Positions 24,452 through 30,420 of a stretch of DNA of 43,578 nt are shown piece by piece (the stretch's first letter is position 1; each line of letters begins with the position of its first letter). The DNA is taken from contig CP070734.1 of the NCBI GenBank assembly GCA_020347605.1, positions 2,129,278 to 2,172,855 of the forward strand, in the 5' to 3' direction. Both the position numbers and the translations under genes were made by a program. The notes under the pieces are model-generated. The model saw only the letters and a program-made list of their open reading frames with translations. It ran no database searches and was not told the origin of the DNA. This stretch comes from Deltaproteobacteria bacterium (GTDB lineage: Bacteria > Myxococcota_A > UBA9160 > G020347605).

Positions 24452-24856
24452 TCACGGCTGCGCGGCGAGCCCCTTCAACACCAGCTGGTCGTAGGCCACG
24501 ATGCCCTTGATCTCCTGGCCGTCGATCACGGGCGCGGCGGAGATGCCGAAGCGCTGGAAGAGCCGCGCGCAGTAGCGGATGTCCATCTCCGGCTTCACGG
24601 ACAGCACCGGCTTCGACATGATCTCGTAGACGTTGGTGCGCTCGGGGGAGCGATTCTGCGCCAGCACCTGCTTGGCGATGTCCGCGACCAGCACGATGCC
24701 GAACTCGTCGTCCTCGTGGCGTTTGGCGACGATCAGGAAGCGGGCGTTCTTCGCCCGCATCGTCGCGAGCGCCTCCGCCACCGTCGCGACCCCGTCCACG
24801 ATGGCGAAGTCCAGCTCCATGACGTCGGACACTCGAACCAGACTCTTCTCCGTCAC
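24452..24856 (-). CDS. CBS-domain pair protein (stand-alone)
   Basis: 134 aa, consisting of two CBS repeats (VSDVME...VATVAEALATMRAKNARFLIV... and IMSKPVLSVKPEMDIRYCARLFQRFGISAAPVI). The GTG start overlaps the stop of the PII-like gene (GTGA). Confidence 0.85.
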   Translation of the reverse strand: MTEKSLVRVSDVMELDFAIVDGVATVAEALATMRAKNARFLIVAKRHEDDEFGIVLVADIAKQVLAQNRSPERTNVYEIMSKPVLSVKPEMDIRYCARLFQRFGISAAPVIDGQEIKGIVAYDQLVLKGLAAQP

Positions 24857-25206
24857 AGCTCCTCCTCCTCGAGGCTGGGCGTGATGCTCTCGACCTGATG
24901 CGTGACGCCCACGGCGTCCTCGACGTCGATCTGGAATGCTATGCCGGTGCCGGGCGTCGTGTCGAATTCGCCGGCTTCGCCGACCGTCTCCAGGATCTGG
25001 CGCGCGCGGTGCTCCTCGACGAGCAGCAGGACCATGTCCCGCTGCGTCTCCAGGCTCAACCCGAGGAAGGTCTTCTTCTCCTCGAGCCCTTCCCCGCGCG
25101 CGTTGGTGATGACGGTGCAGCCGGTGGCCCCGGCTTCACGGGCGGCTTTCGTGATGGTGTCCGTCTTGTGGTCGTCTGCGAAGACGACGATCAGCTTGAA
25201 CCGCAT
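24853..25206 (-). CDS. P-II (GlnB)-like signal-transduction protein, divergent
   Basis: 117 aa from ATG 25206: MRFKLIVVFADDHKTDTITKAAREAGATGCTVITNARGEG...MVLLLVEEHRARQILETVGEAG...GTGIAFQIDVEDAVG. This gives a beta-alpha-beta x2 pattern with the GxG(K)IF-like motif of PII. The upstream 175 codons of track ORF 24853-25731 are an out-of-frame read of the DUF1538 gene. Confidence 0.75.
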   Translation of the reverse strand: MRFKLIVVFADDHKTDTITKAAREAGATGCTVITNARGEGLEEKKTFLGLSLETQRDMVLLLVEEHRARQILETVGEAGEFDTTPGTGIAFQIDVEDAVGVTHQVESITPSLEEEEL

Positions 25207-26030
25207 GCTGGGTCTCCTCCAGAAGCGTTGGAATCTCCGGTCGGCGGTGCGTCGGCCGGGGTGTTGCGCGCGGCGTACCACGCCGATGCCTGTGCGTAGG
25301 CGAGGACGGAGATCATGGGAAACAGACTGGCGAAGGCGATGAGCCCGAACCCGTCGATCAATGGGCTGCGCCCCGGGACCGTCTCGGCCAGGCCCAACCC
25401 GAGCGCCGCCAGGATCGGCACGGTCACGGTGGAGGTCGTGACGCCGCCCGAGTCGTAGGCCAGCGGCACGATGAAGCGGGGCGCGAACAGCGTCTGCACG
25501 ACCACCACGACGTAGCCGATGGCGATCAGCTCGTGCAGGGGCGCACCGACGACGATGCGGAACACGCCCAGGGTCACGCCGATGGCCACGCCGACCGCGA
25601 CCGCGATCCGCAGGCCGTGGGCCTTGATGGCGCCGGCGGACAGCTCGTCGGCCTTGAGGGCCACCGCGATCAGCGCCGGCTCGGCGATCGTGGCGCTGAA
25701 GCCGATCGCGCCGGCGAATGCGTACACCCACACGTAGGCGCTGGGGTCGACGGACGCGACCGCCGCGGCGTTCGGCCCACCGCCGATGAACGCCGGGTCG
25801 GTCAGCTGGGCCGCCATGATCCGGCCCAGTGGAAAGAGCGCCTGATCGAGACCCAGCAGGAACAGCGTCAGACCCGCAATGGCGTAGGCGAACCCCACGA
25901 GGAGCCGCTTCGGGCTGGGCGGCGCCTGGCGCAACACGAAGAACTGGAACGTCACGAGGATCGTCGCGATCGGGAGGACGTCGCGCAGGGTCTCTCCCAG
26001 GACACCGAACGGCGCGGCCAACGGCAGCAT
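25191..26030 (-). CDS. DUF1538-family integral membrane protein (subunit 2)
   Basis: 279 aa from ATG 26030 ([33 protein letters not shown]...). It is a paralog of the upstream gene and shares [30 protein letters not shown] and [12 protein letters not shown]. Its start shares 1 nt with the upstream stop. Confidence 0.8.
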   Translation of the reverse strand: MLPLAAPFGVLGETLRDVLPIATILVTFQFFVLRQAPPSPKRLLVGFAYAIAGLTLFLLGLDQALFPLGRIMAAQLTDPAFIGGGPNAAAVASVDPSAYVWVYAFAGAIGFSATIAEPALIAVALKADELSAGAIKAHGLRIAVAVGVAIGVTLGVFRIVVGAPLHELIAIGYVVVVVQTLFAPRFIVPLAYDSGGVTTSTVTVPILAALGLGLAETVPGRSPLIDGFGLIAFASLFPMISVLAYAQASAWYAARNTPADAPPTGDSNASGGDPACGSS

Positions 26031-26761
26031 CAGATGAGCATCCCGTAGAGCAGCACGAAGAGGATCGGCGTGAGCGACGCGAACGCGATCAGCCCGAAGC
26101 CATCGGTGACGGGATTGCGCCCCTTGATGGACGACGCGAGACCGATACCGAGAGCGGTGACCAGAGGCACCGTGATGGTCGACGTGGTCACGCCGCCGGA
26201 ATCGTAGGCGATCCCCACGATCTCCGGGGGCGCCAACGCCGTCAAGACGACGACCAACAGATAGCCGGTGGCGATCATCGCGTGGATCGGCCAGCCCGTG
26301 AGGATGCGCCAGACGCCGATCACGATGGCCGTGCCGACGGAGAGCGCCACGGTGAACCGCAGACCGAGCGCATAACGCCCGCGCGCGAGCTCGGTGTCGG
26401 CGATGGCGCCGGCGCGGGCCGCGACCTCGGAGGCCTCGTTGGCGATGGCGATGAGCGCGGGCTCGGCCGCTGTGGTGCCGAACCCGAGCGCGAAGGAGAA
26501 CCCGACGAGCCACGCCAGCGAGCCCTTGCGGGCGAACGCGTGGGCCATGCTCTCTCCCAACGGGAACAGTCCGAGCTCGAGGCCGCGGACGAAGCAGGCC
26601 AGGCCCAGGATCACCAGGGCGAGGCCGGTCAGAAGCGCGCCGAATTCCGGTATCGGTTGCCGCAGGACGACCAGCTGGAAGACGCCGATCACCAGGATGA
26701 TGGGCGCGAGATCCTGGGCGCTGCGCGCGATCGGGCGAAACATCGATTTCAGCCAGGACAT
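26030..26761 (-). CDS. DUF1538-family integral membrane protein (subunit 1)
   Basis: 243 aa with multiple TM helices. The motifs [35 protein letters not shown] and [12 protein letters not shown] are present. Confidence 0.8.
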
Positions 26762-27011
26762 GGCGGCGGCCGGGCCCCCTCTCCCGAGCCTCGCGCGCGC
26801 CAGGGTACCCCACGTCGCGGTACGAGGGTCTCTCTAGGATAGTTGCGAAAAACCCTCGAAACTGGTGTAGGCTTGTCCGGTTGGGCGCGGCGGATCCCTC
26901 GGACGGGGCCGCTGCGACGACGCGCGCTGGCGAGGGGCCGCGCGTCACGATTCGTTCGGCGGGGCGCTCGGGATCGCCCCGGGATCAACTCGAGACACAG
27001 GAGAGTCCAAG

Positions 27012-27458: not shown

Positions 27459-27500
27459 TCCCCCTCCATCCCTCTCCGCGGCGATCGCCCGCGGAACAGG

Positions 27501-27528
27501 AGACGCCCCGGCTCCGGCCGGGGCGTCT
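27501..27528 (+). terminator. perfect 12-bp GC hairpin downstream of the small secreted-protein gene
   Basis: agacgccccggc - tccg - gccggggcgtct, 43 nt after the stop. No U-tract follows, which may be the norm at this GC content. Confidence 0.5.
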
Positions 27529-27651
27529 GCGTCTGGGTCCTCCGAGTCCCGCTCTCCCCGCGCGGCGCGCATGACCCCGGTCATACGGGTCCAATCGGCG
27601 ATGTGGCATCCAGTCCCGGGTCGGATGCCGAGCCAGCGAGGAGGGCGGAAC

Positions 27652-30420
27652 GTGGCCGAAACCCGGGGCCCCTGGGCCGACGCCTATCGGAAGAAGTGGA
27701 CCTGGGACAAGGTCGCCTGGGGAAGCCATGCGGTCGACTGCTACCCGGGCGGGTGTCCCTACCGGATCTACGTGAAGGACGGGCGCGTCGTCCGCGAGGA
27801 GCAGGCCGGCAGCTTCTCTCCGGTCGAGCGCGGCATTCCCGACATGAACCCGATGGGCTGCCAGAAGGGGGCCTGCTGGAGCCAGCTGCTCACGGCTCCG
27901 GATCGCGTCACGCACCCGCTGAGGCGCGTGGGGGAGCGCGGCGAGGGACGGTTCGAGCGCGTCTCCTGGGACGAGGCGTTCACCGACATCGCGGACGCGA
28001 TGCTCGACGCCCTGCAGGAGGACGGACCCGAATCGATCATCACGCTGATGACGCCCGAGCTCGGCGGCTCGCCCGCGCGCCTGTTCGCCGACGTGCTCGG
28101 TACGCCGACGACCGACGGCAACGCCGAGTTCCAGGACTTCAGCCCGGGCTGGCATTTGACCTGGGGCGTGTTCAACCCCACGGCCTCGATGGACGACTGG
28201 TTCCTGGCCGAGCTGACGCTGATCTGGCACGCCAATCCGGTCTACACGAACATCCACTGGTATCACTACGTCGCCGAGTCGCGCTACAACGGCGGCGAGG
28301 TCGTCACGATCTCGCCCGACTACAGCCCCTCTGCGATTCACGCCGACTACCACGTGCCGGTCCGGATCGGCAGCGACGCCGCGCTCGCGCTCTCGATGTG
28401 CCAGGTCATCGTCGACGGGAAGCTCTACGACCGCACCTTCGTACAGGAGCAGACCGACCTGCCGCTCCTGGTGCGCAAGGACACGGCCCGCTTCCTGCGC
28501 GGCAGCGAGGTCAACGAGGGCGACCGGGACGACCAGTTCTTCTGGCTGGATTCGCGCTCGCGGATCGTGACGCCCGCGCCGCGCGGTACGCTCGCGACCG
28601 GCGACGTGGATCCCGCGCTCGAGGGAAGCGCCACCGTGACGCTCAAGGACGGCACCCGCGTGGAGGTGGAGCCCGCCTTCGAGCGCCTCAAGCGGCGGCT
28701 CGAGGACTACGAGCCGGCGCGCGCGTCGAAGCTGTGCGGCGCGCATCCGGACGCGATTCGCAAGCTCGCGCGCAAGGTCGCCACGCGGCGCACCAAGATC
28801 TTCATCGGCTGGAATTCGGGCAAGTACTACCACGGGGACCTGATGGAGCGCTCGATGGCGCTGCTGCTCGGGCTCACCGGAAACTGGGGGCGCAAGGGAA
28901 CCGGCACGCGCTCCTGGGCGGTGGCGGGCTGGGACAGCTTCGTCTTCCTGTCGCAGAAGGCTCGGCCCGGTCAGGACGCCGCCCGCGAGTACCTGCAGAA
29001 CCTGGTGCAGATGCGTCGCCTGATCGCCCAGGACGACCCGACGCAGACGCTCGAGATGATCTCGAATCGCGCCGCCTCGATGAGTCCCGAGCTCAGCGGC
29101 ATGGGTCGCATGATGCCGCCGGCCTTCCTCTGGTACTACCGCTACGGCTATCGGGACCGCTGGAACGATCCGAAGAACCACGATCCCTCGATGAAGCGAA
29201 GCTTCGACGCGTACATGAACGAAGCGATCGAGAAGGGCTGGTGGGATGCCAGCTACGCCAAGGCCTACCAGGAGGTGTCGCCGCGCGTTTTGTTCGAGGC
29301 GGGTGGCAACATCCTGCGCCGGCAGCGCGGCGGACAGAAGCTCCTGCTCGAGAACCTCTGGCCGCAGCTGCGCATGATCGTGTCGGTGGACTTCCGGATC
29401 ACCACGACGGGGATGTACTCCGACTACATCCTGCCGGCGGCGCAGCACTACGAGAAGCTCGGCCAGAGCATGCCGTCGGTGCATCACCTCAACTGGGTGC
29501 TGTGCGATCGCGCGGTCGACCCGCCGGACGAAGCGCTCTCCGACAACGAGATCGGCCTGCGCCTGGTGGAGAAGCTCGAGGAGCGCGCGGCGGCGCGGGG
29601 CCTGACGGGCTTCACGGACCGCGCGGGCACGCCCCGCTCGCTCACGGGGCTCATGGCGCGTGCCACGCTGAACGGCGCCTTCCGGGACGAGGAGAAGATG
29701 TTCGACGAGGCGCTGCGCGACAGCGCGGCCTACGGGATCCTGCCGCCCGACGCGAGCCTCGACACGCTGCGCGAGAAGGGTCACCTGCGCTGGACCGCGT
29801 GGGGGATGATCGGCCACGGGCAGGCCCAGGCCTCGACGCTGCGGCCCGACGAAGTCCACAACCCGTTCCGCTGGCACACCGAGGAAAAGGTCCCGTACGC
29901 GACGCTCACCCGGCGCGCGCAGTACTACATCGACCACGAGTGGTTCCTCGAGGCCGGCGAGGAGCTTCCGATGCACAAGGAGCCGCCCGGCCAGGGCGGG
30001 CCCAAGCGGCGCTTCCAGCTGACCAGCGGCCACAACCGCTGGAGCATCCACTCGATGAACATGCCCAACCGGACCCTGCTCAACACGCATCGCGGCGAGC
30101 CGTTCGTGTTCCTGAACGATCGCGACGCGGCGGAGCTCGGCATCGAGGGCGGCGACAAGGTGCGCCTGTCGAGCGACGCGGGTGCCATGCTGCTGGTCGC
30201 GAAGCTCACGCCCGCCTGCCGACCGGGGCAGGTGATCCTCTACAACGGCTTCGAGCCCTACATGCACGAGCAGTGGTACAGCCAGTCGGACCTGGAGCCG
30301 GGACACGTCAAGTGGCTCGGGCTGGCGGGCGGCTACGGCCACCTCCAGTACCGGCCGCTGGCCTGGCAGCCGATCCCCGCCGATCGGGCCATCCGGGTGG
30401 ACGTCGCGAAGGCGGGCTGA
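27652..30420 (+). CDS. Mo-bisPGD oxidoreductase catalytic (alpha) subunit, type II DMSO-reductase family (NarG/EbdA/DdhA/SerA-like), no Tat signal
   Basis: AYRKKWTWDKVAWGSHAVDCYPGGCPYRIYVKDGRVVREEQ...(x34)...GCQKGAC is the N-terminal FS0 [4Fe-4S] motif. HPLRRVGERGEGRFERVSWDEA, ISPDYSPSA, and C-terminal GEPFVFLNDRDAAELGIEGGDKVRLSS (the Mo-pterin-binding beta-barrel) are also present. I prefer GTG 27652 because gaggagg (27638-27644) lies 7 nt upstream. In-frame ATGs at 27571 and 27601 are alternatives. Confidence 0.9.
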   Translation: MAETRGPWADAYRKKWTWDKVAWGSHAVDCYPGGCPYRIYVKDGRVVREEQAGSFSPVERGIPDMNPMGCQKGACWSQLLTAPDRVTHPLRRVGERGEGRFERVSWDEAFTDIADAMLDALQEDGPESIITLMTPELGGSPARLFADVLGTPTTDGNAEFQDFSPGWHLTWGVFNPTASMDDWFLAELTLIWHANPVYTNIHWYHYVAESRYNGGEVVTISPDYSPSAIHADYHVPVRIGSDAALALSMCQVIVDGKLYDRTFVQEQTDLPLLVRKDTARFLRGSEVNEGDRDDQFFWLDSRSRIVTPAPRGTLATGDVDPALEGSATVTLKDGTRVEVEPAFERLKRRLEDYEPARASKLCGAHPDAIRKLARKVATRRTKIFIGWNSGKYYHGDLMERSMALLLGLTGNWGRKGTGTRSWAVAGWDSFVFLSQKARPGQDAAREYLQNLVQMRRLIAQDDPTQTLEMISNRAASMSPELSGMGRMMPPAFLWYYRYGYRDRWNDPKNHDPSMKRSFDAYMNEAIEKGWWDASYAKAYQEVSPRVLFEAGGNILRRQRGGQKLLLENLWPQLRMIVSVDFRITTTGMYSDYILPAAQHYEKLGQSMPSVHHLNWVLCDRAVDPPDEALSDNEIGLRLVEKLEERAAARGLTGFTDRAGTPRSLTGLMARATLNGAFRDEEKMFDEALRDSAAYGILPPDASLDTLREKGHLRWTAWGMIGHGQAQASTLRPDEVHNPFRWHTEEKVPYATLTRRAQYYIDHEWFLEAGEELPMHKEPPGQGGPKRRFQLTSGHNRWSIHSMNMPNRTLLNTHRGEPFVFLNDRDAAELGIEGGDKVRLSSDAGAMLLVAKLTPACRPGQVILYNGFEPYMHEQWYSQSDLEPGHVKWLGLAGGYGHLQYRPLAWQPIPADRAIRVDVAKAG

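Follow-up and report, generated by a model that had tools for sequence, protein, structure and literature searches.

What do two membrane proteins of the DUF1538 family, a divergent PII-like protein and a stand-alone pair of CBS domains do together when their genes are packed into a single overlapping cassette? We addressed this question at a locus in the genome of a Deltaproteobacteria bacterium (GTDB lineage Myxococcota_A; UBA9160; assembly GCA_020347605.1, contig CP070734.1, forward-strand positions 2,129,278 to 2,172,855). The window is this entire stretch of 43,578 nucleotides (nt), with a G+C content of about 70%, and positions are counted from its first letter. The cassette comprises four minus-strand genes, here called A and B (the DUF1538 membrane subunits), the PII-like gene and the CBS gene (Table 1). 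A first-pass annotation, made from the sequence alone, had proposed a heteromeric transporter or channel of unknown substrate under the control of two sensors. We conclude that the cassette probably encodes a secondary transporter of the UmpAB type together with two dedicated cytoplasmic sensor subunits, and that control of the carrier by the PII-like and CBS proteins, acting as nucleotide or metabolite sensors, is plausible.

The membrane half of the cassette was assigned by homology. Both A (227.5 bits, E 1.4e-67) and B (213.9 bits, E 2.1e-63) matched the Pfam family DUF1538 (PF07556) far above its gathering cut-off of 22.6. In NCBIfam, A matched the UmpA model NF041627 over its full length (363.3 bits, E 4.8e-109; curated equivalog cut-off 490) and B the UmpB model NF041628 (296.2 bits, E 1.8e-88; cut-off 500); both are equivalog-type models named "Na,Li,K/H(+) antiporter subunit UmpA/UmpB". 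Gammaproteobacterial orthologs reached 355-400 bits against the UmpA model, and the window A was comparable. By these scores, A and B are homologs within the UmpAB clade and, by the NCBI criterion, not equivalogs.

UmpAB of Halomonas zhaodongensis is an overlapping pair of DUF1538 genes, both of which are required to rescue E. coli KNabc; the two proteins co-immunoprecipitate as a heterodimer, and everted vesicles containing them show Na+, Li+ and K+/H+ antiport with K0.5 values of 0.26-0.46 mM and an optimum at pH 9 (Meng et al. 2017, PMC5484666). Because this activity was published in 2017 and NCBIfam now holds UmpA and UmpB models, the earlier view that DUF1538 has no assigned function and that the substrate is unknown is out of date. 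A published functional assignment thus exists, for the membrane half of the cassette only. Like UmpAB, the window pair consists of neighboring DUF1538 paralogs that overlap, measure about 245 and 270 amino acids (aa) and have seven predicted transmembrane segments each; the start/stop overlap is of the TAATG/TGATG type in both cases. UmpA relatives at 54-70% identity were reported from Thiohalospira, Vibrio, Scalindua, Desulfobacula, Methylosarcina, Mariprofundus and Methyloglobulus (PMC5484666), and several groups on that list (Vibrionaceae, Methylococcales, Desulfobacterales) also carry the cassette in our data. This published clade, at 54% identity or more, includes Scalindua, and close homologs of the window proteins are likewise labeled Planctomycetota in the source databases. 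The two systems differ in that the window proteins fall under the equivalog cut-offs and in that the PII-like and CBS genes are known from the window cassette and not from the UmpAB paper: the cloned Halomonas fragment stops after umpB, and PII-like or CBS proteins, membrane orientation and regulation are unmentioned there (PMC5484666).

The open reading frame (ORF) map and translations bore out the four minus-strand genes and all the features originally described for them. All three junctions overlap (by 1, 16 and 4 nt), as was read directly from the sequence, and overlapping or closely abutting junctions were also seen repeatedly in orthologous loci. Shine-Dalgarno-like stretches precede the PII-like ATG (GGAGGAG, 25214-25220) and the CBS GTG (GAGGAGGAGGAG, 24859-24870). 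This organization suggests tight translational coupling and hence a fixed stoichiometry of the cassette products. A and B align at 49% identity, and the motifs reported as common to the two paralogs are shared in this alignment. Pfam searches with HMMER likewise confirmed DUF1538, P-II and CBS, above the gathering score wherever one is given.

We then asked how widely the four-gene order is kept. A scan of one genome per GTDB species found relatives of A in more than 587 genomes, and the best 80 loci (62-76% identity to A) were analyzed, 78 of them being evaluable by tblastn with the four window proteins. The order A-B-PII-CBS, always on one strand, was found in 72 of the 78 evaluable genomes, and A-B-PII in 75; three loci lacked the CBS gene only (L016, L024, L063). 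The carriers belong to at least four phyla, among them Gammaproteobacteria, Alphaproteobacteria, Nitrospirota, Myxococcota and Desulfobacterales (Desulfobacterota). Among these 80 loci the cassette was commonest in Gammaproteobacteria, including Beggiatoa-like bacteria, Thiomargarita, Sedimenticola, Methylococcales, Shewanella, Colwellia, Photobacterium and Hahella. Gene calls made independently for the complete Teredinibacter turnerae T7901 genome, with their Pfam matches, gave the same series: DUF1538 (240 aa), DUF1538 (267 aa), P-II (116 aa) and CBS (139 aa). So recurrent an arrangement goes far beyond what chance would give, and the window copy is an ordinary member of a widespread cassette. 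The expectation that the gene order is conserved across phyla was thus borne out, and the conserved synteny, together with natural fusions described below, supports both a heteromeric transporter of two DUF1538 paralogs, for which UmpAB homology also speaks, and, strongly, the claim that the PII-like and CBS genes form a tightly coupled functional unit with it.

No further conserved neighbor gene was found beside the cassette across the orthologous loci. In many Gammaproteobacteria (L002, L006, L008, L014, L019, L021 and others) the cassette lies between nadC and ampD-ampE; we considered these genes as functional partners and rejected them, since the flanks look like lineage synteny of Gammaproteobacteria. 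Three loci (L005, L042, L072; Parabeggiatoa, Thiomargarita and an uncultured Gammaproteobacterium) hold an orphan UmpA-like gene with no B, PII-like or CBS gene nearby, which may be a decayed or second copy.

The association with a PII-like protein extends well beyond this clade. An all-against-all HMMER search with A (E <= 1e-3) collected 2,827 clusters at 50% identity, many of which are single polypeptides with two DUF1538 domains. Some lineages have gone further and encode A, B and PII in a single chain (P0242, 659 aa, 3 cluster members on 5 contigs; P0400, 639 aa) or fuse PII to B (P0257, P0264, P0271, P0294); such fusions speak for a direct physical contact at the C-terminal end of the B half. 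No CBS-DUF1538 fusion was found among 150 representatives. A metagenome scan seeded with distant fused DUF1538x2 proteins of about 500 aa returned 80 loci (L081-L160), mostly from the human gut, of which 73 had enough downstream sequence to be evaluated. The fused proteins, of gut Clostridia type, share 28-45% identity among themselves and with A. Directly downstream, 71 of the 73 loci encode a tandem PII-PII protein of about 230 aa (e.g. L091:1882-2580), in which Pfam detects the C-terminal domain only and the family hidden Markov model (HMM) detects both; none of the 73 has a CBS gene. A P-II gene also accompanied DUF1538 in all four RefSeq plasmid records inspected: in Paraclostridium and Peptoclostridium a fused DUF1538 gene is followed by an overlapping gene for a 222-aa "P-II family nitrogen regulator", and in Chelativorans and Methylocystis a split DUF1538 pair is followed by a single P-II gene. 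The PII-like partner is therefore family-wide and the CBS partner is not, and the recurrence of the former in the distant branch and on plasmids indicates that the DUF1538-PII link is ancient.

Two further observations concern the wider family. The protein P0243 (724 aa, 6 contigs, the longest of 689 kb) carries two DUF1538 domains and a C-terminal cytidylate-kinase-like/AAA_18 P-loop domain, so that a different nucleotide-binding module occupies the position where other lineages have PII. At L156, one of the two distant loci without PII, the next gene (L156:1715-3175) encodes a CPA-type Na+/H+ exchanger with TrkA_C (RCK_C), which offers anecdotal support for antiport.

The assignment of the 117-aa protein as GlnB/PII-like held up in both sequence and structure comparisons. 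It matched the Pfam P-II family (PF00543; E 5.6e-12, 46.3 bits against a gathering score of 25), and its AlphaFold2 model, with a predicted local distance difference test (pLDDT) score of 76 and a T-loop of low confidence, matched GlnB, GlnK, GlnZ and SbtB structures at a Foldseek probability of 1.0 (207 matches at E < 1e-3). At the level of the model, this confirms the PII fold (ferredoxin-like beta-alpha-beta-beta-alpha-beta); the protein is presumably a trimer. Sequence similarity to PDB entries is remote (best E 0.05 with a single sequence, 7e-6 with a profile), and no NCBIfam model matches the protein.

Its effector pocket departs from that of canonical PII proteins. The T-loop, which contains the string NARGEGLEEKKTFLGLSLETQ, is five residues shorter than the canonical one in a profile alignment and is highly conserved within the PII-like family, as expected for a docking element. 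In the alignment to archaeal GlnB/GlnK structures, numbered by what we take to be the E. coli GlnB sequence, Q39 is replaced by G40, K90 by I89, R101 by G100 and R103 by H103 (His or Thr); K58 alone of the five canonical ligand residues is kept basic, as R56. The position that we take to be Tyr51 of E. coli GlnB holds Phe47, which is invariant in the family, and the modifiable T-loop residue of canonical PII proteins (Tyr51 or Ser49) is absent. This agrees with the original description of a short T-loop without Tyr at the uridylylation position. The loss of the canonical triphosphate and 2-oxoglutarate ligands suggests that the effector is not MgATP/2-oxoglutarate in the classical binding mode. 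Public names for the homologs (P0001-P0120) include "P-II family nitrogen regulator", "nitrogen regulatory protein PII" and in some cases "YaaQ"; given the genomic context and the missing ligand residues, the nitrogen-regulator and YaaQ names are probably misleading.

The fourth protein contains two PF00571 stretches (Pfam, E 2.5e-16), and its residues 7-128 match PDB 5nmu (CBS-CP12, residues 5-126) with E 3.2e-24 and about 50% identity over about 122 residues. This CBS-CP12 module, from Microcystis aeruginosa, binds AMP and not ADP, ATP or cAMP, acts on the soluble enzyme phosphoribulokinase, and forms dimers when the CP12 domain is missing (PMC6142219). The window protein ends at residue 134, with the match confined to the CBS part, and has no CP12 domain; hexamer formation and regulation of phosphoribulokinase are consequently not expected, and its genomic context is entirely different. 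Other transporters regulated by CBS domains (MgtE, OpuA/OpuC, ClC, CorC) also move ions or osmolytes under the control of a Bateman module that responds to adenine nucleotides or ionic strength. In those it is a fused cytoplasmic domain, whereas the window CBS pair stands alone as its own polypeptide and is accompanied by a PII-like protein.

How might the two membrane subunits be arranged? The carrier was modeled as the A monomer only. The AlphaFold2 model of A (pLDDT 82.9, predicted TM-score 0.79) has ten helices, with breaks exactly at the invariant AEPA (100-101) and YDSGGVTTS (186-194) motifs. Foldseek found no solved relative of A in the PDB (best E 0.31, TM-score <= 0.27), and sequence and profile searches likewise found none for DUF1538, so that A is predicted to have a fold without a solved relative. 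UraA/SLC26-type 7+7, NhaA and IT-superfamily folds were also considered, and no search gave support for them. In 80 orthologs of A, Lys+Arg numbered 7.0 in the N-terminus and loops 2, 4 and 6 versus 2.1 elsewhere; in 66 orthologs of B the pattern was the mirror image, with 7.1 in loops 1, 3 and 5 and the C-terminus versus 3.2 elsewhere. This mirror pattern was still clearer between the halves of 80 distant fused proteins. By the positive-inside rule, this bias points to an N-in/C-out orientation for A and N-out/C-in for B, which would account for A-B fusions without an extra transmembrane segment and for the fusion of PII to the end of B. A 7+7 inverted repeat, with A and B antiparallel, is thus the most likely architecture of the carrier. 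The Glu of AEPA (third transmembrane segment) and the Asp of YDSGG (sixth) are invariant in both halves throughout the family, and the Asp of DGFG, at the start of the seventh, is invariant within the UmpAB-like clade. These three carboxylates are likely cation/proton sites, as invariant membrane carboxylates at helix breaks fit cation/proton coupling.

Taken together, these data are consistent with the following working model. A and B would pair antiparallel into a 7+7 inverted-repeat carrier that, by homology with Halomonas UmpAB, would exchange Na+ (also Li+ and K+) for H+. The PII-like trimer would dock on the cytoplasmic face beside the C-terminal tail of the UmpB-like subunit, where its T-loop may act on the carrier as a gate or clamp, in the manner of GlnK with AmtB and SbtB with SbtA. 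AMP, as a sign of low energy charge, is most likely the signal read by the CBS pair, which would modulate the same complex. As a guess, the antiporter might be restrained at low energy charge or low proton-motive force, avoiding futile cation/proton cycling. Here we infer the docking of the regulators, the identity of the effectors and the direction of regulation.

The comparison with GlnK-AmtB and SbtB-SbtA brings out likenesses and differences. As in those systems, the gene for the PII-fold protein follows immediately after that for the transporter, the pairing is kept across phyla (in the genomes, metagenome loci and plasmids counted above), and the T-loop is conserved and could serve as a plug. 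The window transporter, however, belongs to an unrelated family with cation/H+ as the proposed substrate, and its carrier is a predicted antiparallel heterodimer of paralogs rather than a homotrimer. Its PII-like protein lacks Q39, K90, R101, R103 and Tyr51 and is predicted to carry an additional helix at the C-terminus, the CBS-pair protein is an added fourth component, and the distant branch has a tandem PII.

Several points weigh against this model. A PII-like trimer does not match an UmpAB heterodimer in stoichiometry in any obvious way. The ribose-binding motif of the second CBS domain reads GIVAYDQL (24483-24506) versus a consensus of GIVSYTDM in 70 orthologs, and one nucleotide site of the window protein may be altered. 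Since A and B lie below the equivalog cut-offs (363 < 490; 296 < 500), equal substrate specificity with UmpAB is not guaranteed. No Halomonas locus was among the best 80 genome loci, so that a linkage of umpAB with PII and CBS genes was not seen there; a homolog search seeded with the Gynuella locus (400 bits against the UmpA model) returned Teredinibacter, Neiella and Halioglobus and no Halomonas. Finally, a single heterologous study, done in an antiporter-deficient E. coli strain, supplies all functional data on the family; UmpAB was active there without the PII-like and CBS genes (PMC5484666), indicating that these genes are dispensable for basal transport.

Some of these points would also fit the same four-subunit complex with a physiological substrate other than Na+/H+ (K+ alone, ammonium, bicarbonate or another small ion), the antiport in KNabc then being a side activity or specific to one clade. 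We consider this unlikely. Both subunits were needed for complementation, and the K0.5 values for Na+, Li+ and K+ in everted vesicles were sub-millimolar (PMC5484666); the invariant membrane-embedded carboxylates in both halves fit cation/proton chemistry, no conserved neighbor ties the cassette to carbon or nitrogen metabolism, and the PII-like protein lacks the 2-oxoglutarate ligand residues. In Rfam searches, no riboswitch was found upstream of the cassette in the window or at 13 distant loci. The idea draws on the equivalog scores, on the reliance on a single heterologous study with broad Na+/Li+/K+ specificity (PMC5484666), on a fold without a solved relative and hence without a structural hint of the substrate, and on the fact that characterized PII-type proteins gate the nitrogen- and carbon-related transporters AmtB, SbtA and NrtBCD (Foldseek match list; bioRxiv 10.1101/2023.08.10.552651).

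A mainly sensory or anchoring role of the membrane pair (a "transceptor"), with the PII-like and CBS proteins relaying its state to other cytoplasmic targets, seems distinctly improbable. Covalent A-B-PII and B-PII fusions bind the PII domain to the membrane protein, the neighborhood holds no conserved third-party target gene, and the tight translational coupling suggests fixed stoichiometry. Such a role would suit PII proteins as signal processors that act on multiple targets. It would also suit a relative of CBS-CP12, which targets a soluble enzyme (PMC6142219), and the ability of UmpAB to function in E. coli without PII-like and CBS proteins (PMC5484666).

That the two small proteins are receptors for cyclic di-AMP (c-di-AMP), like DarA/PstA and DarB/CbpB, and control a K+/H+ antiporter may be set aside as scarcely credible despite the name YaaQ given to some close PII-like homologs, the K+ transport by UmpAB (PMC5484666) and the control of K+ and osmolyte transport by c-di-AMP via PII-like and CBS receptors (PMC9293649; PMC4316997): the best structure and sequence matches are canonical GlnB/GlnK, with PstA/DarA not among the 50 Foldseek matches listed, and the closest CBS relative is AMP-specific (PMC6142219). 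Both findings led us to reject this analogy as the main interpretation. The cassette is, moreover, commonest in Gammaproteobacteria, which to our knowledge generally lack diadenylate cyclases.

A regulated UmpAB-type transporter is therefore the interpretation that we retain. In the searchable literature we found no mention of a PII-like or CBS partner of DUF1538/UmpAB. The transporter core is known; as far as could be checked, no report was found of its conserved regulatory set-up, of the inverted topology or of a non-canonical subfamily of PII-like proteins. A bolder generalization, which we offer tentatively as possible rather than probable, is that DUF1538 and the PII-like protein form an ancient, family-wide, obligate and undescribed transporter-regulator pair. 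Its carrier would be 7+7 inverted with a fold unlike any solved, and its PII-like lineage would have dropped ATP/2-oxoglutarate sensing for another effector; separate branches would have gained separate additions, the proteobacterial-type clade a CBS sensor of AMP, Clostridia a second PII domain, and another branch a P-loop kinase-like domain.

The surroundings of the cassette in the window are functionally unrelated to it, the neighbors being an acyl-CoA dehydrogenase, an AMP-dependent ligase and a molybdopterin oxidoreductase. It is flanked by a convergent acyl-CoA ligase gene on one side and, on the other, by a divergent small ORF followed by the molybdopterin oxidoreductase gene (Table 1). 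Within the upstream intergenic region, no sigma-70 consensus site was found, promoter and terminator consensus scans being uninformative in DNA of 70% G+C. A short, palindromic-looking match to the sX6 small RNA model was detected on both strands at 27499-27532 (28 bits, against a gathering score of 40), between the 148-aa ORF and the molybdopterin oxidoreductase gene, and may be a hairpin.

Table 1. Coordinates of the cassette genes, their junctions and the adjacent features in the window
Feature	Position	Strand	Remarks
Gene A, UmpA-like DUF1538 membrane subunit, 243 aa	26030..26761	minus	predicted 7 transmembrane segments, N-terminus in / C-terminus out
Gene B, UmpB-like DUF1538 membrane subunit, 279 aa	25191..26030	minus	predicted N-terminus out / C-terminus in; variable cytoplasmic tail
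Divergent PII-like protein, 117 aa	24853..25206	minus	putative trimeric regulatory subunit
Stand-alone CBS-pair (Bateman module) protein, 134 aa	24452..24856	minus	GTG start; putative adenylate sensor
A/B junction, TGATG	26030	minus	1-nt overlap (shared A)
B end / PII-like start	25191..25206	minus	16-nt overlap
PII-like/CBS junction, GTGA	24853-24856	minus	4-nt overlap
Upstream intergenic region	26762..27011		presumed promoter region, between cassette and divergent gene (ORF map)
Divergent signal-peptide-like ORF, 148 aa	27012-27458	plus	no Pfam match
Molybdopterin oxidoreductase gene	27571-30420		

How energy or metabolite sensors control bacterial cation/proton antiporters post-translationally is poorly understood, and the cassette provides a compact, widespread and genetically tractable case, with carriers such as Teredinibacter turnerae, Shewanella, Photobacterium and Colwellia and a tandem-PII form in gut Clostridia. 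The transporter fold has no solved representative, and the predicted inverted topology gives a direct experimental handle on it. The PII-like proteins constitute a subfamily defined by its non-canonical effector pocket. If the proposed regulation is correct, the PII "plug" paradigm, so far one of nitrogen and carbon transporters, would come to include ion and pH homeostasis, and a systematic mis-annotation as "P-II family nitrogen regulator" would be corrected. If the pair is indeed obligate, the "nitrogen regulator" label would be wrong for thousands of genes, and the Na+/H+ antiporter label may cover only part of the function of the family.

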